This document shows positions 28,729-41,436 of a stretch of 64,000 bases of DNA, piece by piece. The DNA is from Eubacteriales bacterium (GTDB lineage: Bacteria; Bacillota; Clostridia; Oscillospirales; CAG-272): positions 40,546 through 104,545 of the forward strand of contig JAZRCT010000054.1 in assembly GCA_045659905.1 (NCBI GenBank), written 5' to 3'. Each line of letters opens with the position of its first letter. The first letter of the stretch is position 1. The notes below the pieces were generated by a model. The model did no database searches, was not told where the DNA came from, and worked only from the letters and a program-made list of their open reading frames with translations. A program made the translations under genes and the position numbers.

Positions 28729-28750
28729 TTAGATAAGCAGGATAGAAACA

Positions 28751-28812
28751 GGGGTGCTTTGCAGCCAAAGCACCCCTCGACACCCCGAAAGCATTTTTGG
28801 AGGTGTTTTTTT
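28751..28812 (+). terminator. two-hairpin terminator module, copy A
   Basis: GGGGTGCTTTG-CAGC-CAAAGCACCCC (28751-28776), then ACACCCC-GAAAGCATTTTT-GGAGGTGT plus T7 (28780-28812). It lies 23 nt after the lysS stop. Confidence 0.75.
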
Positions 28813-28951
28813 ATTGCCTTACGGCAATATCACTCTTCACGCAAGTGAAGAATATAACTCCTCACGTAAGTGAGGAATATCACTGTCGCCTGAGCGACAA
28901 TATCACTCCTTGCGAAGCACTCCCCAAGGTGAATATATAAGCCTTATATTC
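28813..28951 (+). repeat. mini-hairpin micro-array A (conserved word AATATCACT)
   Basis: Hairpins are ATTGCC-TTAC-GGCAAT, CTTCAC-GCAA-GTGAAG, CCTCAC-GTAA-GTGAGG, GTCGC-CTGA-GCGAC, CCTTG...CAAGG and GAATATA-N7-TATATTC. The first five alternate with AATATCACT at 28826, 28876 and 28899 and the variant AATATAACT at 28851. Confidence 0.75.
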
Positions 28952-29050
28952 CCGTATACAAATAATTTACACAGGCTCGCTTGACTTGCCATATTGATAT
29001 ATGATAAAATAGGTGAAAAGCGAAATGAAGCCTTGCGAAAGGAGCGTCAA

Positions 29051-29800
29051 ATGGCAGAAAACGAACACGGCGGCGACAGCAACACGGTAAAGGAGAAAAA
29101 GTCCTTTAAGGAGTGGCTCGAAAATTATTTTTATCATTATAAATGGCATACTATCGTCGCTTTGGTGATAGTCTTTGCGATAGTTATTTGCTCGGTGCAG
29201 ATGTGTGATAAGACCTCGTACGACCTGCACGTTATGTATGCGGGCGGCACGGATATCCGTATGACTAGCGTCAAGGAGGGGGATATTTCCGAATACCAGA
29301 AGCTTCTTTCGGGTATCAGGCCCTACACCGGCGACTCCGACGGCGACGGCAACGTAAATATAAATCTTCTTAATCTTTATATGCCCTCGGCAGAGGAAAT
29401 CAAGGAAATTGAAAAGGACGAAAATAATGAAGCCAATCTTGCCCTGATAGCACAAAACAACGAGCTTTTCAAGCAGAATATTCAATACGGCGATTACTAC
29501 GTATGCTTTATTTCGGAGCATCTGTTTTTAAAGCATACCGAGGATGAAAGCATCGTACGCTTTGCGCCAATCGCCCCCTATGCCGAGGAAAACAGCTCGG
29601 CAAAATACGTGAATGAATACGGAATATATCTTTCCTCGCTTCCTATTTACGAGAAGCCGGGCTTCAATCTGCTCGGTGAAGACACCGTGCTTTGCATAAG
29701 ACGGGTAGACTATATTTCGGGAAGCTTCGACAAGGACGACAGCTTATCAGTATTTAAGCACAGCGAGGCGTTTCTTCGCAGTCTTATCCTGGCAAAATAG
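29051..29800 (+). CDS. hypothetical single-pass membrane protein
   Basis: Start set at the ATG at 29051 (MAENEHGG...), which has an AAGGAG RBS. One TM helix (IVALVIVFAIVICSV) is followed by a domain of about 200 aa. I recognised no family. Confidence 0.65.
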   Translation: MAENEHGGDSNTVKEKKSFKEWLENYFYHYKWHTIVALVIVFAIVICSVQMCDKTSYDLHVMYAGGTDIRMTSVKEGDISEYQKLLSGIRPYTGDSDGDGNVNINLLNLYMPSAEEIKEIEKDENNEANLALIAQNNELFKQNIQYGDYYVCFISEHLFLKHTEDESIVRFAPIAPYAEENSSAKYVNEYGIYLSSLPIYEKPGFNLLGEDTVLCIRRVDYISGSFDKDDSLSVFKHSEAFLRSLILAK

Positions 29801-30087
29801 TAGCAAACCCCAAGGGATTTCATAAAATGCTATCAGCGAGTATTTCGCTAAGGCTTTTTTCGGAGTATTTTATGAAAATTATTATCTTACGTGCGCCCCG
29901 TGCGTTGCGTCCTATACTTAAAAAGCTGTTTTCCATAAGCTGACAGCGAGGCGTAATAATTAAAATCAAGAAAGAGAGAGTAAATCGGTACAGAAATATG
30001 CCGAAATGCTCCCTCTTTTTCCTTATCATTTGCCTAGCCTTATAAGGAACACTTTGATTTTAAAGCGTTCGAACGTATTTTTAAAAA

Positions 30088-30146
30088 GGGACGCTTTGAA
30101 GCCAAAGCGTCCCTTACACCCCGAAAGCATTTTGGGGTGTTTTTTA
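30088..30146 (+). terminator. two-hairpin terminator module, copy B
   Basis: GGGACGCTTTG-AAGC-CAAAGCGTCCC (30088-30113), then ACACCCC-GAAAGCATTTT-GGGGTGT plus T-run (30116-30146). It is nearly identical to copy A apart from compensatory changes in stem 1. Confidence 0.75.
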
Positions 30147-30268
30147 TTGCCTTGGGGCAATATCACTCTTTGCGAAAGCAAAGAATATCACTGCGAAGCA
30201 ATATCACCCTCGCCGCAGCGAGGATATTTCACTCTTCACTCTTCACTTTTCACTCTTCACTCTTACCT
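30146..30268 (+). repeat. mini-hairpin micro-array B plus YTTCACT heptamer tandem repeat
   Basis: Hairpins are ATTGCC-TTGG-GGCAAT, CTTTGC-GAAA-GCAAAG, GC-GAA-GC and CCTCGC-CGCA-GCGAGG. They are separated by AATATCACT/AATATCACC at 30159, 30184 and 30200. Tandem TTTCACT CTTCACT CTTCACT TTTCACT CTTCACT follows at 30227-30261. Confidence 0.75.
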
Positions 30269-30282
30269 CCAGAGCATCTGTG

Positions 30283-30414
30283 TCAGATGCTCTGGTTCAA
30301 GTCCCACACGCCATCGGTATTTTCTACGGCGGTGGTTTCAGTTCCGGAGGTAGTAATGATATCCGAATTTACAAGATTTATTACCTCAAAATCGGGGTTA
30401 ATGTAAAGTTTCAT
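30283..30414 (-). CDS. 43-aa peptide, paralog of the 40744-40890 peptide (not in ORF track)
   Basis: ATG at 30414, preceded by AAAGGAGG, 18 nt after the stop of the 818-aa gene. Translation: MKLYINPDFEVINLVNSDIITTSGTETTAVENTDGVWDLNQSI. It shares M-K-x-Y-I-x-P-x-x-E...L...D-I-I-T-x-S with the other peptide. Its stop codon lies inside a 12-bp hairpin (30269-30296). Confidence 0.6.
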   Translation of the reverse strand: MKLYINPDFEVINLVNSDIITTSGTETTAVENTDGVWDLNQSI

Positions 30415-30432: not shown

Positions 30433-32889
30433 TTACTGGTTGTTAAGTGAGAATATATAATCTCTGTAAGCCTTAGCTGATGCGCAGTAGTTGTAGAATT
30501 TAGCTACGATATCGGAAAGCTCGGTATCGCTCTTTTCTACTGCATCTGCGTAGTAAGCGATAAGGTTATATTCACCACTGATTTCGGTATCTGCTATTTC
30601 GTAGCTGAATACCTCGGTCATTTCATATGCAAAGAGGGTAAATTCGATATAGTCGCCGTCTGCATCGTTGCCCATCTTAGCCTCACTTGCACGAAGCGCT
30701 CTCGTACCAACCTTGAAGCTGAATTTATCAGCCGAGTAGGTATCAAGATAGAAGCGTACTGCGGGATTTGCCTCAAGCACAAAGGTAGCTCCCGAAAGTC
30801 CGTTGGTGGTACACTTAGCGTCGCCCGTATTGATAGCAGCGGTCGATGCATAGCCGTTAAGCACAGCATCAATCTCTGCCGATACTGCCGTCTTATCGTC
30901 TGCGTTAAAGTAATTGTATGCGCTTCTGATATACGAAAGCATATCCTTAGCAAGCGTCTTTTCGGTAGTGCTAACCTCGGTATCGCTCATTGCGAGAAGC
31001 TTCTCTGCGTACTTCACAGTAGAGAAGGTGAAGCTGCCGTTTACGGAAGTGCCGTCAATATCAAGAGTCACAACAAGTGTCAGAGTCTTAGTCGCCTCGT
31101 TTGCCGCAAGCTCTACCGATACGAGATAGTAGCCGTCCTTAGCCTCGCCAAGCATATTCGTATAATCGTCTGAACCAAGCTTTACAGCTGTAAGTCTATC
31201 GTCAGCGGGAATATATACGTTAAATATGAGATTGGAGTCAAGCGTTACCGAAGCCTTGGGAGTGAAGTCGATGCCTATCGTCACGGAAGGAGTAAACATA
31301 TAGGTAGCGATACTTGCATCCTCGCCCTGCTTTACAAGCTTAAAGCCGAAATATTCGTCAGCAGGCACAGTAGCGCCGGTAGGAACTGCAAGCTCAAGGT
31401 AGCTGCCGTTATCACCCTTCTCGAATACGAGTACGCTCGTCGTAGCGTCTGCCTTCGTGAAGATATTAAAGGTCTTGGTATCGGCTACAATTCTACCGCC
31501 CTTGATAACGTACTTGATATTAGTAAGTCCGTTTCCAAGATTAAAGAGGGTTGCGCCCTGAGCCGCACTCTTAATATCAAAGATGCAGTTATTAAAGCTA
31601 ATCTCGGGATAAGCCTTAGAATCGGGAGTTTCTGCGTTTATAGAGGTCGTTGCTATGATATTCGTAGCCGAGCCTGTAACCTTAAAGGTGACGTTATCAA
31701 ATCTGTAATCAAACGCCTTGCCCGAAACGTCGATATTGGACGACGTGCCCCATGGCTCGTAGCTAATCATAGGTGAGTTTACAATCTCAATATTTCCGTC
31801 TACGAAGCTGAATACGGTCGGGAATATTGAGCTGTCGCCCGTAACAACCCAAGGCTTAATCGAGGACGAGAACATTACTCTATTGTCAGCTGCCGAAAGC
31901 GTGAAGCCCATAAGGTCTACCGTAATTACGCCCTGAACCTGAGCTAAGTTATTGTAAGCCTCGTTGTCGGCAAACTTGTAATCACGTCTCAGAATTATAA
32001 ACGCTGCCTTGGGACTTTGACCGTAGGAGCTTCCGTCCCAGGTATTTGCCGACATATAGTTCTTTGCCGCATTGACTGCGCCGTTATTGTTATAGGGGTT
32101 AGTGGTGTCGAGAAGCGAATCAAATGCGCCGAGGAAGTTGCCGTTTTCGTCAAATACTACGAAGGGATATTTTTCCGTCGAGTAATACTGATAAGGAATA
32201 TCTCCGTATTTCGTGGGAATAGGCTCACCGAGCGCATAATCCGAGTAAAGACCGTTATTCTTATCAAGAATGAAGCTGAGCACCTTGCCCGATTTATTCT
32301 TGAAGATTACGTTAGGAGCAGCCACGTGAGAAAGCTGAGTAAGCGTGAGATATTTTCCGTCCACAGCTTCAAAATAGTACGTATCATTGCTATTCATATC
32401 GCAAAGGGTGCGACCTGCAAAGTCGTCGGCTATTATTTTTCCGCCCTTGAATATAGCGGAGCTCGAATTATACTCGTTACTGAACGAGAAGTATAGGGCA
32501 TTCGAAGCCGCAGCGGTAAAATCAAAGGTGCAGTTTTCAAAGAAGTAATCAACCGCAAGTCCGTTACCAACGTGACCGCCTCCGGTCCATTCTCTGATAA
32601 AGCCGTTTCCGCCGCTTGCAACCTTAAAGGTAACGTCGGTAAAGGTGAAGCCAAACTGCTTAGACTCGTAGCTTGCATTAGTGCCTGCGTGACCAAGCGC
32701 AATCATAGGTGCATTCGGCTTATTGTTAAGAAGCGTACCGCCTCTGAATTCAATCTCCGATTTGTATCCGAAGACTCCCGCATTAGCCGTATCGTTGCAA
32801 TTAAGGTGTATATCTACAAGGTACTTATCTACGTTAGAAAGAGTAAAGCCGTTAAGGTCTATTATGATTTTTGCCTTTGCGGTTAACAA
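30433..32889 (-). pseudogene. 5'-truncated paralog of the giant beta-helix surface protein (818 aa open)
   Basis: The frame opens only 9 codons upstream of a TTG. There is no RBS and no signal peptide. The protein begins exactly at a module start (AKIIIDLNGFTL; compare TTINLNGHTV and TVNFDLAGNTL in the 36016 gene). It has two repeated modules (DLxGFTL...NVTFKV...NC(T/I)FD...KGG(K/R)I(I/V)AD). Its C-terminal domain is homologous to the C-terminus of the 36016-40730 product. Confidence 0.6.
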
Positions 32890-33073
32890 GCACGTTAAAC
32901 GCCTCTATCGTGACGAGAAGCTTCGCTCCCTTTGAGAGCGCGTCTTCCATTCTCGAAAACTCTCTGTCGTAATATTCCTTACCGAGCTTAAGGCAGTATT
33001 CTCTGTCATATTCCTTCGGATTTCTCACGTCGTAATCAAAGGGCTGTTTTGACTGAAGTATTGCGATTTTCAT
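32880..33073 (-). pseudogene. N-terminal fragment of an unrelated gene (possibly carbon-nitrogen hydrolase-like) abutting the truncated beta-helix gene
   Basis: ATG at 33073 with a GAGGAA RBS. The translation is MKIAILQSKQPFDYDVRNPKEYDREYCLKLGKEYYDREFSRMEDALSKGAKLLVTIEAFNV, which then runs into a stop after 12 unrelated codons at the junction. The family assignment is tentative. Confidence 0.4.
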
Positions 33074-33234
33074 TTTGGATTCCTCATTTGCGGTAACGTT
33101 TTTTATCATTTTAGCACAAAAGCAATGCATTTTTCAAGTCCTAAAACAACTTAATGCCGAATTTACAAATTCGGTCTTTTATTTTTCTTCTATTCGTGCT
33201 AGAATATATCCAATAAAGAAAGAGGTATTGTGCA

Positions 33235-36015: not shown

Positions 36016-39000
36016 ATGAGAAAACATCTTAAGACACTACTTCCGATAGTACTCGTAGTAGCGCTTGCTATGGCGCTCTCTATCGCAGTATTTGCCAGCG
36101 ACTCGACGAACGAAGCGAAAATAGGCGATACCGAGTACGCAACGCTTGAAGAAGCAGTAGCGGCTTCAAACGCATCGGCAAACGGCGAAACAATCGTCCT
36201 TTTAAAGGATATCAGCAGAACCGTTGCCACGATGGGCTTCTCCAAAAGCACCACCATAAATCTTAACGGTCACACGGTGTCCGCTACCGATCCCGCCAGC
36301 ACGGGAACCCCCATAATGGTAGTTAGTGCTCCGAACGTTACCTTAACGCTTTCGGGCAATGGCACCTTCAACGTAGCCCAGAAATTTCTTCAGATAAGCT
36401 CGAAGAATGACGGCGCTAAGATAATCGTAGACGGCACCGACTCCGGAATCGTAATCAACCAGTCTGCACCTCAGGCGGTATTAATGATAAACTCCGGCAC
36501 AGGCACAGAATTCACCAACGCCCACGTCTATGCGACTGCCAACGCCGAGTTCTTCCCCATTGCAAGCGGCACGGTAACCTTCAACGACTCCACGCTGGTC
36601 GCATCGAACTTAAGCGCTCGCCTCTTCAGCTACAAGACGGCAGGCGTAAAGTTCGTCTTTAATAACACCTACGCTTACGCCGGAAAGCAAATATTTGTCG
36701 GCAACGTTTTCAGCGCAACCGACGACAATTTCAAGGTAGATAACCCCGCCGACTTCGTAATGCTTGATGCAAAAAATTCCTTCTTCCACGCCACCGCCGT
36801 TGCCAGCGCCTCGAACATAACTAGCTTCGGCGGCGCAGGCAAGGTAAGAGTGTCGGGCACGATGAATTTCGACAACTGCGAGCTTATGGCATACAGAATA
36901 TTCGAAAACGGCGCCAGCTCGGGCGTTACCGGTCTTCAAGGCGGAGAGCTTGAGGACGGCTACACTCTTAATATCAACTGCACGAATTCCACCCTTCAGG
37001 CGCTTACTCACACCAACTCAGGACAGATAGTCCGCGGTCACGTAAATTACAGATTTGAGGACTGTAATCTCGGACTTCTCTCAAACGGCGGTCTCGGAGG
37101 TTATACCAGCGGCGAGTATATCACGGTAATCAACTGTCATTTCAGCAAAAACGTTATGGACGACACCACCGTAAAAGGCTGGCTTGAGGTAAATTCCATA
37201 AAGGAGGGTGACGGTAACGTATTCTGCTATGACGTAACCAATCCCGAATACCCCTTCTATCTCTGCAACGAAGAAAAGAAGCCCGTACAGCCCGATAATG
37301 TTCTTTTTAACAATTTTAACTTTAACCTGAACGCCAATGGTGCGCCCACATTCCCGCTTAAGGGCACAAGCACTACCGACGCCGGATTTAATAATACAAC
37401 CTACGGCGGTAACTTTACGATAAAGCACGGTATGCTTGAAGCAATTTCCGGAATCAACGGCTCATACCTTAAGTACACACCGTTACCGCACTTGACGGTT
37501 CTATACCCAGCACCCCCACCACGATAAACTCCACCGAGGACCCCTTCCTCATTCTCGGTGACGACAGCAAGCCAAATATCATCGCCTACAAGGACAACGA
37601 GATAATCGTAATCGATTTCGATATTATGCTTGAAAATTTCGGCGGCTCGAAGTTCTCAATAGCGCCGCAGTCGAGGGATGAGGATGGCAACGGAGTAAAC
37701 AGCGACCACTTTAACGTAACTGCGGGCGTAATCGACGGCAAGCCCTGTGCGGATTCACAGTGGCACCACATCCAGATGGTAATTTCCGTAAATCAAACGC
37801 AAAACGGCGACTGCAATATATACAACGGCTCGACCTACCAGCTTTACGTTGACGGCACTGCAGTCGGCAACGCTAACAGATTGGCGGTTAAAAACGACCT
37901 AACCCTGACCAAGGAGCTTTACCTCCAGGGTGTAAGAATCAACATTCTTAAAAATGTAGATCACACGACAGGCGCCTCTATCTCCTATGATAATATCCTT
38001 ATTCACTCCTACAAGGATGCCGATAGCTTCACTCCCGGCGCTCGTCCTCAGAACGGAACCCTTATGTCGGCGGGCAACAGACTTCATGGCATTGCGGCTG
38101 AAGGTCAGAGTCTCAATATCGTTACCGACCGCACGGTCACCACTAGCGATTTAGTCACCTCTCTTAAGAGCGGTATTTTCGATGAAAATGCAATTTACAC
38201 CGACTTTAAGGGCTTTATAACCGATAAATCGGCTCTCCCCGCAGGCAATAAGATTGGCGAGCAGATTTTCGTGCACGGCATAGACGGCACCACCGCTTCC
38301 TTCTACGCTACCTACTCGGATAAAACCTCGGGCGTCGTAGCTTACGGTACCGACGGTAAGCCTTATATGGGCGCAGACAACACGGCTGAGTTCAAAACTC
38401 TTTTCGAAACTTTAGGAAACGGCGAAACCGCTAAGCTTCTCGCCGAGGAATTTATCCTTGACGACAACAATCAGGTTTACCTTCACTCCGCCACCGCAAA
38501 GACCGTCAACTTCGACCTTGCGGGCAATACCTTGAACAAAATCAGAAAGGGCCTGATTTTCTCTAACTTCCAAAATATTACCTTCAACGTATACTCCTCG
38601 CTCCCCGGCGGCAAAATCAACTCACGAGGAATATTTGACAACAGCATCAACCCCAGCGATGCATACTACAGCTTTAATACCAACTTCGGTGGTGCAATGT
38701 TCTTCGTAAGCCAGCCTAACGCTACTATAAATCTCGGTAAATACGGAGGCTATTCCGGTGAAAACCTTACCGTCACCGGTGCGTTCATGGTTGACATTTC
38801 AGCTAACGTACAAAACACAAGCCTTAATATCGACGGCGGTACTTATATAAGAACCGTACACGACTCAATAGGCTTTATCGGTGTAAGAGCAGGCACTAAC
38901 TCTGCTATTTCCATCAAGAATGCAAACCTCCTTTCAGGAGAAGCAAGCCCTGCGACTATCTTCAGCATTCTCGAAGGCTCTACGGCAACCCTTACGGTAG

Positions 39001-40730
39001 AGAAATCCACCGTATTTATGCCGATGCCTACGGGCGATAACGCAACCGCCAGTGCGCTCTTTGATTCTCTTAGCACAACCGCCACCGTAACCTTCAACAG
39101 CACCAGCTTCTCCAACGTATCCTTCACTCCCAACAAGGCAGGCTATTCCAAGGTAAAGCTCGGTACGGGCTGTACCTACAGCGAAAGCTGTAATACCGCT
39201 AACGTTGATTTCGGTGAAAATGCGGCGGTAACTCTGGCGGCGGGCTGGAAGCAGACTCTCGCAAACGGCTCTGAGCAGCTTATATTCAACAGCGTAGAGG
39301 GACAGGGCTCAATGACCTACCACTACTATAAGAACTCCACCGCTAACAACGGAAAATACTTATTCGTATGGACCGGCGAGACCGGTACTGACGGAAGCGG
39401 CAACACCGTTCCTTCGGGAAGCTTCACTGCGATATACGGCGATATCTCTACCGTATGTGACGGCGACGCTACCAATGGCTACACCTTAAAAAGCGACTGC
39501 TACTACGGCTCGAAAAACGGTATCGTAAGTGAAAATGTAAACGAAACCTACCTTGTATCCACCGGCGTTACAGCTCCCGATGACAAGCTCACTTACGTAA
39601 TGCCCAATCAGACGTATATCGTGCTTGCCGAGGGACAGCGCATCGTCACTTGGGAAATCGGCGAAAGCTCCGCCACCGAGGTGCGTGATGCCGACGACGA
39701 TACTGCGCCTTCGGGCTTTGAGCTTCCCGTATCCAAGGCAGAAGTTTACGAATACACCTGGAACGTAGAAAGCGTAACCGAGGGTGGCGTACAGTACGAA
39801 ACCCGTACCGTAAAATTTGAAGTACTCTTTAAGCTCAAATCCAACATATCGCTTAACAACGATTTCAAGTACAATATCTATATCCCCAAGGCTCTCGTTG
39901 AGGGCGGTGACGTTAACGAAACTATACTCCTTAACGGTAACGAGGTTACCCTTACCGACCTCTATATTCACGAAAGCGTTGAATATTATATCGTTTCGGT
40001 AAACAACATCGCAGCTCCAAACGGCGGAGATTCATTCGAGGTAATCACTACCTTAAATCTTGCCGACGATGCTATGGAGGCTACCGACACTATCGATACT
40101 ACCTTCACGCTCTCGATTCCCGAGTATGCAAAGCTTGTGCTTGAAGATACGTCTCTCAACGCAGAGTGCAAGCAGATGATGGCAGACGTGCTCAACTACA
40201 TAAGACTTGCGGCAGTCTTCGGCGGTGACGCTTATACCGCTAAGGCAGGATACACCGCAGTCAACGATGCAATTGCTCTTTACGACGCTGCAGGAATCAC
40301 TGCTACCGATACCACTGCGACCGACTTTGCAGCTCTTGCTAAGACTCCCGTAGGAGTAAAGGCGGCAGTAGATGCGGCAACCTTTGAAATCGGCTCAAGC
40401 GTAAAGATGCGCCTTTACCTCTCCGAGGGCTATAACGGAACGCTTACCCTCACCTACAAGGACAAGGCAAACGCCGACGTAGTCACCGATTACGAGATTA
40501 CCGACGGTAAGTGTAACGGCAAGAGCTACGTAGAGCTTAATCTTAAGGCATACTATATTGCAAATGACGTCACCATCACCTTTGACGGTCAGGCAGACGC
40601 TACGAATGCGGTATATAACCTCGCTTCTTATATTGAGTATTACAAGAGCAACGCAAAGGTATCTGACCTCGCAAAGGCGCTCTACGCTTACTCGCTCTCT
40701 GCACTCGCATATCAGAATACCTTAGGATAA
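36016..40730 (+). pseudogene. giant secreted beta-helix / LamG-domain surface protein, split by a frameshift (503-aa plus 1034-aa ORFs)
   Basis: AAGGAG RBS and a signal peptide MRKHLKTLLPIVLVVALAMALSIAVFA. The ORF stops at 37527. The second frame is open from 37473 and continues the same domain (...VTALDGSIPSTPTTINSTEDPFLILGDD...). A LamG-like signature is present (SQWHHIQMVISV...YQLYVDGTAVG). Beta-helix-type repeats and the C-terminal domain are shared with the 30433 gene. Confidence 0.7.
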
Positions 40731-40743
40731 GGAGATTTCCGAA

Positions 40744-40890
40744 ATGAAGCAATATATTGCTCCAAAAATTGAGCTTTTAGCTCTGATAAGCAGAGATATT
40801 ATTACGGACTCTCAGCCCTCCGGCGGCGAGACCGATACGCCTATTCTCAGCATAGGCCCTAATCAAAATCAAAGTAACGGAAATTTCTGA
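40744..40890 (+). CDS. 48-aa peptide, paralog of the 30283-30414 peptide (not in ORF track)
   Basis: ATG 13 nt after the stop of the giant gene, with a TAAGGAG RBS overlapping that stop. Translation: MKQYIAPKIELLALISRDIITDSQPSGGETDTPILSIGPNQNQSNGNF. Confidence 0.6.
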   Translation: MKQYIAPKIELLALISRDIITDSQPSGGETDTPILSIGPNQNQSNGNF

Positions 40891-40894
40891 TATA

Positions 40895-40953
40895 AAAGCA
40901 CTTATGATGAACGATAAAATCGTCTGTCATAAGTGCTTTTGCGTTTCTTTTGC
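40895..40953 (+). terminator. intrinsic terminator after the peptide gene
   Basis: A 13-bp stem AAAGCACTTATGA / TCATAAGTGCTTT followed by TGCGTTTCTTTT. Confidence 0.75.
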
Positions 40954-40975
40954 CTTGCTTCCCGATGGTAATCAG

Positions 40976-41139
40976 GTGAAGTTTTCGCTTATGCGAAAGT
41001 GAAGTTGCTACGCAGTGAAGTTTGTGCTACGCACAAGTGAAGTTATGTTTGCCCTCTTTGCCGAAGGCAAAACTTCACTATCCGCAGGATAACTTCACTT
41101 ACGTAGTAAACTTCACTTGCCCGCAAGGGCAAACTTAGT
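40976..41139 (+). repeat. mini-hairpin micro-array C (GTGAAGTT x4, then AACTTCAC(T) x4)
   Basis: GTGAAGTT occurs at 40976, 40999, 41015 and 41037. AACTTCACT occurs at 41071, 41091 and 41109, with a degenerate AACTTAGT at 41132. The words are separated by mini-hairpins: TTTCGC-TTAT-GCGAAA, TGC-TAC-GCA, TGTGC-TAC-GCACA, TTTGCC-GAA-GGCAAA, ATCC-GCA-GGAT, TACGTA and TGCCC-GCAA-GGGCA. Confidence 0.75.
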
Positions 41140-41143
41140 TAAT

Positions 41144-41187
41144 GGGCGCACTCGAAAACTGCGTTTTCGGGCACGCCCGTTTTTCTT
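41144..41187 (+). terminator. terminator-like nested hairpin closing array C
   Basis: GGGCG...CGCCC encloses CGAAAAC-TGC-GTTTTCG and is followed by GTTTTTCTT. Confidence 0.55.
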
Positions 41188-41211: not shown

Positions 41212-41436
41212 TCAGTAATCGGTAGGGTAGGAATCCTCGTCGCAATCACAGCACGGAGAGCAGATTTCTTCCTTTTTCTTCATATTCTTCATTTTATTTA
41301 TCATACAGGACATTTTATCGGTTATGCCTCGCTTCAGCGAGGATACTATACTGTAAGCTCCGTATACGGCAAGACCTCCTGCCATAGCAATTATAAGCGG
41401 ATGCTTCTTCTTTTTTGCATTTTTCATAAAAAGCAT
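41212..41436 (-). CDS. small membrane protein with a Cys-rich acidic tail
   Basis: 74 aa with a K-rich N-terminus, one TM helix (LIIAMAGGLAVYGAYSIV) and the C-terminus EEICSPCCDCDEDSYPTDY. RBS AGGGA. I recognised no family. Confidence 0.5.
   Translation of the reverse strand: MLFMKNAKKKKHPLIIAMAGGLAVYGAYSIVSSLKRGITDKMSCMINKMKNMKKKEEICSPCCDCDEDSYPTDY

Follow-up and report, generated by a model that had tools for sequence, protein, structure and literature searches.

The stretch of DNA analysed here, 64,000 nucleotides of contig JAZRCT010000054.1 (assembly GCA_045659905.1, an Eubacteriales bacterium) and referred to as the window, raises the question of what an array of short hairpins and tandem heptamers is doing behind a small peptide gene at positions 30146-30268. 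A sequence-only reading had taken this array, here called B, for a shared 3′ element of the cassette formed by the peptide gene and a large beta-helix gene. B is instead a one-armed, slightly degenerate copy of Gut-1 (Rfam RF01706), comprising the bracketed-type arm only. Read on the + strand, 30146-30268 consists of four short hairpins spaced by AATATCAC(T/C) and then five YTTCACT heptamers, bearing out the architecture first described, with the following parts:

30146-30161, + strand: terminal hairpin ATTGCC-TTGG-GGCAAT (UUGCC-CCAA-GGCAA on the − strand)
30159-30167, + strand: word AATATCACT, overlapping the hairpin end, with ATCACT beyond the hairpin
30168-30183, + strand: hairpin H2, CTTTGC-GAAA-GCAAAG
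30184-30192, + strand: word AATATCACT
30193-30199, + strand: mini-hairpin H1, GCGAAGC (GCUUCGC on the − strand)
30200-30208, + strand: word AATATCACC
30208-30223, + strand: hairpin H0, (C)CTCGC-CGCA-GCGAG(G), with ATAT between it and the heptamers
30227-30261, + strand: heptamers TTTCACT CTTCACT CTTCACT TTTCACT CTTCACT
30262-30268, + strand: degenerate sixth heptamer CTTACCT (AGGUAAG on the − strand)
30146-30233, − strand: one-armed Gut-1 array B, by Rfam RF01706, our own model R1 and sequence
30227-30268, − strand: five AGUGAAR heptamers and the degenerate sixth, 5′ of array B on this strand

On the − strand, B runs from a box-like AAATAT at its 5′ end through H0, GUGAUAUU, H1, a word, H2 and a further word to the terminal hairpin, and its AGUGAAR heptamers are copies of the linker word without hairpins. 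The heptamers read AGTGAAG AGTGAAA AGTGAAG AGTGAAG AGTGAAA on the cassette strand, which corrects the order given previously, and the small GC-GAA-GC hairpin is not vestigial as had been supposed, with GCTTCGC or GCTACGC being the most conserved hairpin of the family at the H1 position. Tandem Repeats Finder reports 30228-30264 with a period of 7, 5.3 copies, and 93% matches. The claim that the array is no chance repeat holds, given that clusters of three or more identical 7-mers inside 110 nt average only 0.8 in a shuffled window, and that the B region folds far better than its shuffles (z of -8.6 and -9.5 on the two strands). In the non-coding DNA of the window, multi-word 7-mer clusters lie only at B and at two further arrays, A and C, with clusters of AGTGATATT (≤1 mismatch) found in the window only at B and 28826-28907, and clusters of AGTGAAGTT only at 40975-41117.

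The consensus of Gut-1 comprises three hairpins spaced by GUGAAAU, found in human-gut sequences and classed as a non-coding RNA, and the flanks of its seed alignment already contain an inverted second unit set (AAUAUCAC) and AUUUUCA heptamer runs (Weinberg et al. 2010, PMC2864571), so that both features first noticed recur in Gut-1. No literature on Gut-1 was found beyond that paper (Genome Biol 11:R31). A cmscan search of 1.8 kb matched RF01706 to B at 30155-30232 on the − strand with 43.6 bits (E = 8.2e-7), the alignment covering positions 1-77 of the model and pairing all three stems, and to A at 28822-28908 on the − strand with 42.6 bits (E about 1e-6, 1.8-kb search). C is matched at 41067-41141 on the − strand with 53.5 bits. 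The gathering score of RF01706 is 50 bits, which is reached by C only, and by Rfam's own rule B is a divergent or partial member. Our covariance model R1, made from 25 elements of other genomes with the window sequence left out and searched over 112 kb, matches B at 30137-30230 on the − strand with 34.1 bits (E = 1.7e-5), compared with 86.4 bits for C and 51.8 bits for its other arm, 22.6 bits for A, and 30.9 bits for an array downstream of a homologue of the peptide (locus L248). As R1 was built without window sequence, its match to B marks a genuine yet partial member, and there is little doubt that B belongs to the Gut-1 family. B resembles Gut-1 in its three or four short hairpins, GUGAAAU-like linkers, UUGCC...GGCAA end hairpin, and covarying stems, and is unlike the typical Gut-1 in its GUGAUAUU words, the lack of a second arm, five hairpin-less heptamers, and a sub-threshold score.

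The anatomy of the family was drawn from a scan of one genome per species for three copies of GTGAWRTT with 8-22-nt gaps, which yielded at least 120 loci, 117 of them with inter-word segments (L-numbers label the fetched loci of this genome scan and of the viral and metagenome sets). Among the matches listed, 71 of the 117 loci proved to be true hairpin arrays. Of the 312 distinct inter-word segments in the at least 120 loci, 66% form a hairpin with a stem of 4 bp or more, compared with 11% of shuffled segments. The repeat unit combines a short hairpin with a conserved word of 7-9 nt, (A)GUGA(A/U)(A/G)U(U), so that words and hairpins alternate; unit lengths are 16-26, and the spacers are 7-18-nt palindromes. 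The stems differ from copy to copy yet stay paired, with the words invariant within an array; pairs of H1 and H2 are changed on both sides in 6-11 of the 25 sequences of the R1 set (RNAalifold alignment), and an alignment of A and B contains two such compensatory changes in H2.

Two arms are present in most arrays; in all 56 such cases the forward words come first and the reverse-complement words second, the opposite order never being seen. A bracket, consisting of an inverted repeat of 7-12 nt, encloses one arm in 44 of these 56 arrays, as with CTAAGTTTGCC...GGCAAACTTA or TATATTCGCC...GGCGAATATA, and these 44 oriented copies served to define the complete two-armed element. The bracketed arm typically holds three words and the open arm four reverse-complement words. 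When 15 of the genome-scan loci were searched with RF01706 at its gathering threshold, 9 gave matches, 12 in total, that coincided exactly with the bracketed arm. B has neither the closing box nor the reverse words that form the second arm of complete elements, its terminal hairpin being directly followed by A6 and then by a terminator module.

Array-bearing loci come mostly from metagenome-assembled genomes (MAGs) of animal or human gut, assigned to Oscillospiraceae, Acutalibacteraceae, Ruminococcus, Christensenella, and unclassified Eubacteriales or Clostridia (80 titled loci among the matches listed). The window has three copies in its 64 kb, and the fetched loci, some 550 kb altogether, contain 10 additional ones, with two copies lying within 8 kb in several loci; as a rough estimate, a genome would hold copies in the tens. 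Gut-1 belongs to the repetitive extragenic elements, and occurs dispersed in the genomes of gut Clostridia. Two of the loci show copies in close proximity, with Gut-1 and its upstream tRNA and terminator duplicated as two near-identical copies 413 nt apart in L096 (1020-1593), and two Gut-1 copies 2.6 kb apart in L109 (496-3274). A phage origin of Gut-1 was rejected, with matches to the same pattern on viral contigs being mostly coding tandem repeats in which 14% of segments form hairpins compared with 8% of shuffled segments. The only true Gut-1 element among at least 120 viral-contig matches (L154, 2672-2900) lies on a 4.2-kb contig that may be a misassigned bacterial fragment.

The heptamers of B have a wider distribution of their own. 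Only 4 of 103 arrays have a run of AGTGAAR at a distance of 150 nt or less, with heptamers and hairpin-spaced words occurring together in B, L003, L012, L042, and the seed-alignment flanks of Weinberg et al. A metagenome scan for three copies of AGTGAAR (L255-L374; gut, rumen, soil, and water samples) gave 124 runs among the matches listed, 45 of which begin ≤40 nt from the end of a long co-oriented open reading frame (ORF). An inverted YTTCACT run lies downstream in 17 of these 124 and upstream in 1, the same polarity as that of the Gut-1 arms. Neither hairpin arrays nor the peptide were present in the heptamer-run loci inspected, and the heptamer run, being common in metagenomes without arrays or peptide, is thus a more widespread simple repeat, which in B adjoins an array whose word is related to it. 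Runs of 3-20 copies were common at gene ends in metagenomes of many environments, and on Bacteroidetes-like contigs were often followed by AATTTGCT(A/T)CCGC. The 7-nt period puts TGA in all three frames. We found no literature on AGTGAAG runs in bacteria and no orthologous locus in which to compare heptamer copy number, the exact LysRS and GreA proteins not being on record.

The upstream neighbour of Gut-1 elements (≤400 nt, oriented by the bracket) is co-oriented in 26 of 31 cases, and the downstream neighbour in 20 of 34. Elements are found 30-150 nt downstream of a co-oriented gene or tRNA/rRNA operon, usually beside strong terminator-like hairpins, and the 3′ ends of five tRNA or rRNA-tRNA operons are followed by a co-oriented Gut-1 match within about 100 nt. 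In L066 (2046-2853), Gut-1 directly follows a 23S-5S-tRNA operon. The 134 neighbouring proteins match 180 Pfam families, none of them more than three times, and no transposase (Y1_Tnp or other) is seen among the 25 most frequent of these families. Gut-1 is a general element that follows many unrelated genes. A three-frame stop trap, with one TGA per word, was rejected for the hairpin arrays, in which 41 of 118 arms cover all frames compared with 38-40 expected, and is further disfavoured because elements also follow tRNA and rRNA operons.

In the window, B is set among the following features:

30083-30146, both strands: back-to-back terminator module (sequence read, terminator scan, and folding)
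30269-30295, − strand: 12-bp hairpin CCAGAGCAUCUG-ACA-CAGAUGCUCUGG containing the peptide stop UGA (30283-30285)
30283-30414, − strand: 43-aa peptide gene (MKLYINPDFEVINLVNSDIITTS...), 18 nt after a large ORF
30433-32889, − strand: 818-aa cassette ORF with a TTG start directly after a stop codon and no N-terminal region

The peptide (42-48 aa, MK.Y..P..E.......DIIT.S...) has a second copy in the window at 40744-40890, forms 35 clusters in 5.8 billion proteins, and has no family match. An identical peptide is found on six metagenome contigs with an identical gap of 18 nt behind differing large genes, one with a SASA domain (PF03629), and the peptide and large protein together are an uncharacterised two-gene cassette. 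The large proteins that precede the peptide look secreted and otherwise differ from one another, and the distance from them to the peptide is always short and fixed, at 18 nt in seven loci (L001-L006, L247-L254). In seven of eight independent peptide loci the peptide stop is followed by an array of variable hairpins whose RTGAWRT-type words have the same direction as the coding strand (window B, window C, and the types L001, L003, L247, L248, and L251), L250 being the only one of the eight without an array, and by our own count the probability that two of the three arrays in the window would fall to the two peptide genes by chance is ~0.003.

The proposal that the array is a dedicated 3′ element of the beta-helix/peptide cassette, regulating translation of the peptide or marking a site of recombination, draws on these seven loci, on the constant gap behind different large genes, and on a hairpin overlapping the stop codon in three locus types. 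It fits poorly with the genome scan, in which the peptide is encoded in none of the at least 120 fetched loci (71 validated arrays) and the neighbouring genes are mutually unrelated, spanning 180 Pfam families. Array A follows lysS, with no peptide there, and a module of the C type occurs in L011 without a cassette. The words themselves also differ among cassettes, with GTGATAT and heptamers in B, GTGAAGT in C, ATGATATA in the L001 and L251 types and L247, TATGTAAT with AGTGAAG heptamers in the L003 type, and ATGAAAT in L248, whose array scores 54.7 bits in Rfam, above the threshold. The argument from a shared orientation does not hold for the second cassette, C being pseudo-palindromic with its Rfam-defined arm on the strand opposite to the peptide, and the apparent agreement therefore a by-product of this design. 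Of the suggested shared 3′ element, the recurrence behind homologous cassettes stands and the exclusive relationship is largely refuted, leaving a dedicated cassette element very improbable. Peptide genes seem to attract or retain arrays that are themselves generic, and the three micro-arrays of the window should be labelled Gut-1-type repeats rather than cassette-specific regulatory sites.

The surroundings of B also bear on how the element might act. The − strand terminator of the module is formed by GGGACGCUUUG...CAAAGCGUCCC with U5 (GGGACGC...GCGUCCC and then UUUUU), and the + strand terminator by ACACCCCGAAAGCAUUUUGGGGUGU (the CACCCC hairpin) with U6, which ends the upstream + strand gene before B. 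The qualifying intrinsic terminators that flank B lie at 30088-30113 (hand-called) and 30116-30140 (terminator scanner), and their positions place B inside the − strand transcription unit and outside that of the + strand. The module is ~85-90% conserved in array A, L002, and L251, with A, B, and two metagenome loci having in common a ~65-nt double hairpin that constitutes the back-to-back terminator pair. On the − strand, the peptide stop codon within its hairpin is followed by the heptamers, array B, the CACCCC hairpin, and finally GGGACGC...GCGUCCC with UUUUU, such that B lies between the stop codon and the first intrinsic terminator. The stop-codon hairpin at 30269-30295 is not followed by a U-tract; stop-codon hairpins of different sequence occur in L251 and L247, and the 27-nt hairpin itself is absent from the metagenome contigs searched. 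This order of stop codon and terminators would position B as the 3′ trailer of a − strand operon comprising the 818-aa ORF and the 43-aa peptide.

The mechanism that we tentatively propose, and which we consider possible though short of probable, follows from this position. B would be transcribed as the 3′ trailer of the large-ORF/peptide operon, with its hairpins serving as rigid, exonuclease-resistant spacers that bring successive words close together. As a hairpin brings its own two ends together, the spacing of words would be similar in both forms, and hairpin-separated words and tandem heptamers may be equivalent displays. The single-stranded words could then form a multivalent site for a putative sequence-specific factor acting at the ends of transcription units, with a role in, for example, 3′-end stability, processing, or insulation. 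In all seven arrays linked to the peptide, the words run in the direction of the coding strand. In B and in the types L001, L002, L251, and L247, a canonical terminator is reached only after the array, and the terminator positions around B are compatible with RNA from the modelled strand. The array hairpins are themselves not intrinsic terminators, being followed by AAUAUCAC or GUGAUAUU with no U-tracts, and two terminator-scanner matches inside A and B come from the words' own T's.

Several observations weigh against this mechanism. Transcription of the array is deduced solely from terminator positions, and no factor that binds the words is known. The complete elements L013, L015, and L096 follow a canonical terminator by eye, array A has no upstream − strand gene or predicted promoter, and an automated scan found a canonical terminator upstream in only 8 of 32 cases, the simple statistics of terminator position around arrays being too noisy to draw on. 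The loops present a further difficulty, with 46 of 95 triloops on the word strand being UNC and 44 of 78 tetraloops UNNC, such that it is the complementary strand that carries cGNAg and cGNNAg loops. Among 247 distinct segments, exact GCGNAGC or GCGNNAGC mini-hairpins number 40 on the complementary strand and 0 on the word strand, and stem mismatches on the word strand are A.C in 10 cases and G.U in 5, the opposite of what is expected of RNA made from that strand. Taken together, the joint reading of B as a one-armed Gut-1 copy that acts as a 3′ trailer, a blend of family and mechanism, stands in our view at about an even balance.

The same strand paradox is what favours a DNA-level explanation, in which Gut-1 is an element like the repetitive extragenic palindromic (REP) sequences, active as single-stranded DNA or an extruded cruciform on the strand opposite to that of Rfam, with exceptionally stable cGNAg or cGNNAg mini-hairpins alternating with AWYTCAC words that would be read by a DNA-binding or DNA-processing protein in replication, recombination, or mobilisation. 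GCGNAGC and GCGNNAGC are documented as 'mini-hairpin DNA' (PMC13037366), and the + strand of B holds two such motifs, GCGAAGC (30193-30199) and GCGAAAGC (30172-30179). Gut-1 is like mini-hairpin DNA (PMC13037366) in that exact motifs occur in B and across the segments all on the same relative strand, and unlike it in that mini-hairpin DNA is a thermodynamic motif rather than a genetic element, indicating a stability-optimised strand and not a function. Triloops account for 95 of 199 loops and are mostly TNC on the word strand, which is GNA on its complement, and the stem mismatches, taken as G.T, favour the complementary strand by 10 to 5. The multi-copy, modular nature of the elements and their unrelated contexts are likewise expected of such DNA, as is the arrangement of A and B as direct repeats that flank a 1.25-kb segment, a recombination-like pattern. 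However, orientation tracks the upstream transcription unit (the 26 of 31 co-oriented neighbours and the tRNA operons), though the direction of replication confounds gene orientation; no transposase, HUH or RAYT protein is seen in the 25 most frequent Pfam families of the 134 neighbours; the stems are not conserved, unlike those of RAYT-recognised REPs; and loops of the GNRA type are stable in RNA too. We consider the DNA-level explanation possible but doubtful. Were it true, both the 'sRNA' (small RNA) label in Rfam and the strand would be wrong. Its extended form, in which Gut-1 is not an sRNA gene but a REP-like single-stranded or extruded element whose chains of very stable mini-hairpins of the GCGNAGC type offer AWYTCAC words to a putative protein at the ends of transcription units, with the inverted AGTGAAR pairs of other phyla as its hairpin-less version, seems to us unlikely.

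Array A is set out as follows:

28750-28919, − strand: array A, a paralogue of B, with a double terminator module at 28750-28812 and four hairpins spaced by AATATCACT at 28813-28919

A and B have their first two hairpins as well as the ~65-nt terminator module in common. Each with its double-terminator module, they are ~170-nt direct repeats (28750-28919 and 30083-30233), and the 1.25-kb segment between them contains a promoter-like site (28981-29010) and a 268-aa unannotatable ORF (28994-29800). This layout is what recombination-mediated insertion between repeat copies would leave.

The third array of the window represents the complete element, and the sequence at 40976 onward, previously described as a simple array, is part of one two-armed element at 40975-41141 with a bracket and a second arm:

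40894-41187, − strand: complete two-armed Gut-1 module C (Rfam and R1)
40894-40951: terminator hairpin T1 of C
40975-41044: open arm of C, four AGTGAAGTT words on the + strand
41037-41141, − strand: bracketed arm of C, equal to the Rfam match, with the centre lying between the arms
41144-41187: hairpin T2 of C

The ~290-nt module, including both flanking hairpins, is ~85% identical to that of L011 (a Eubacteriales MAG), and the homology ends sharply at the module edges, with unrelated flanking genes. A 74-aa ORF at 41212-41436 on the − strand, with a lysine-rich, cysteine-rich tail and no family match, is co-oriented with the bracketed arm.

C folds as an imperfect rod (-75.9 kcal/mol, z of -8.6), which raises the alternative of a backup or bidirectional terminator-insulator. 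In read-through RNA, the GUGAWRU and AYWUCAC words of the two arms would pair into an imperfect rod of ~70 bp, A/G-rich in its 5′ arm and U-rich in its 3′ arm. The rod would halt RNA polymerase or serve as a substrate for a double-strand RNase and so shield neighbouring units, with one-armed copies such as B being decayed remnants of little function. RNAalifold predicts pairing of the third of the forward words with the first of the reverse words, with covariation of UA/AU and AU/GC in 13 and 11 sequences, although this reflects two subfamilies only and may be a matter of descent. The forward-first polarity of the two-armed arrays (56 of 56) and of the heptamer-run pairs listed (17 against 1) matches the order of A-tract and U-tract in bidirectional terminators, and the elements do lie at transcription-unit ends. 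Against this, the individual hairpins have no U-tracts, and canonical terminators usually adjoin the element, which is therefore not needed for termination. If the rod were all that counted, there would be no reason to select for local hairpins, and one-armed arrays recur after seven peptide genes. We regard the rod as rather improbable, the 3′-trailer mechanism remaining our preferred proposal.

Neither of the two peptides of the window nor either large ORF matches Pfam or NCBIfam. Over their ~300 C-terminal residues, the 818-aa ORF and the 1034-aa ORF at 37626-40730 share 25% identity, and the 818-aa gene is probably 5′-truncated. Just upstream of it, an ORF at 32852-33130 on the − strand resembles an unrelated N-terminal fragment (MKIAILQSKQPFDYDV...).

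Beyond the published description of Gut-1, our observations add the two-armed bracketed architecture, its fixed polarity, and its tendency to lie on the 3′ side of co-oriented units, as well as its occurrence as multiple dispersed copies in named MAG lineages, a link to the peptide that recurs without being exclusive, and the strand paradox of the loops. Since Rfam already contains the family and B is a one-armed copy of it that scores below the threshold, the novelty of the array itself is modest. Rfam has listed Gut-1 since 2010, with a description of one sentence and without any function being proposed, and the element is now visible in MAGs of cultivable lineages (Oscillospiraceae, Acutalibacteraceae, Christensenellaceae, and Ruminococcus). 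If the present account is true, it would be among the few repetitive extragenic families described for gut Clostridia, with the unusual logic of conserved single-stranded words, free-drifting hairpin spacers, and a clear strand paradox.

Other repeat systems resemble Gut-1 to differing degrees. A CRISPR array was ruled out, the repeats being 7-9 nt and the 'spacers' 7-18-nt palindromes, with a best match to a CRISPR direct repeat of 21 bits against a threshold of 50. Type III antitoxin arrays are identical repeats of ~36 nt upstream of a toxin gene, and were set aside against this general description only. The REP sequences and bacterial interspersed mosaic elements (BIME) of Enterobacteria are short multi-copy extragenic hairpins that cluster at the 3′ ends of genes and where genes converge, with orientations that alternate, a conserved palindromic stem and an associated RAYT transposase, and their proposed roles include stabilisation of mRNA 3′ ends, termination, and insulation. 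Gut-1 is like REP/BIME as a short multi-copy set of extragenic hairpins at gene 3′ ends; unlike these, its stems vary and the single-stranded linker is conserved, and it does not class as a REP.

A final comparison is with the omega protein of pSM19035, which binds runs of the 7-bp WATCACW, direct or inverted (PMC9499535). Words that act in this manner, as duplex-DNA iterons for a ribbon-helix-helix (RHH) repressor or centromere protein such as omega/ParB, would fit the TATCACT contained in AATATCACT, the occurrence of both repeat orientations, and the contiguous 7-bp repeats of B. The contiguous YTTCACT heptamers nevertheless fall outside WATCACW, and the words that do fit are separated by a variable 9-18 bp, whereas omega needs adjacent heptads. 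The hairpin nature of the spacers is left unexplained, no partition, RHH or ParA/ParB domain was detected beside the arrays, and the elements are chromosomal and at gene 3′ ends, making iterons of this kind the most far-fetched of the explanations weighed. The omega heptads (PMC9499535) are thus like the Gut-1 words as non-palindromic 7-nt repeats with ATCAC/GTGAT in both orientations in Firmicutes, and unlike them in being contiguous and in lying at plasmid promoters beside partition genes.

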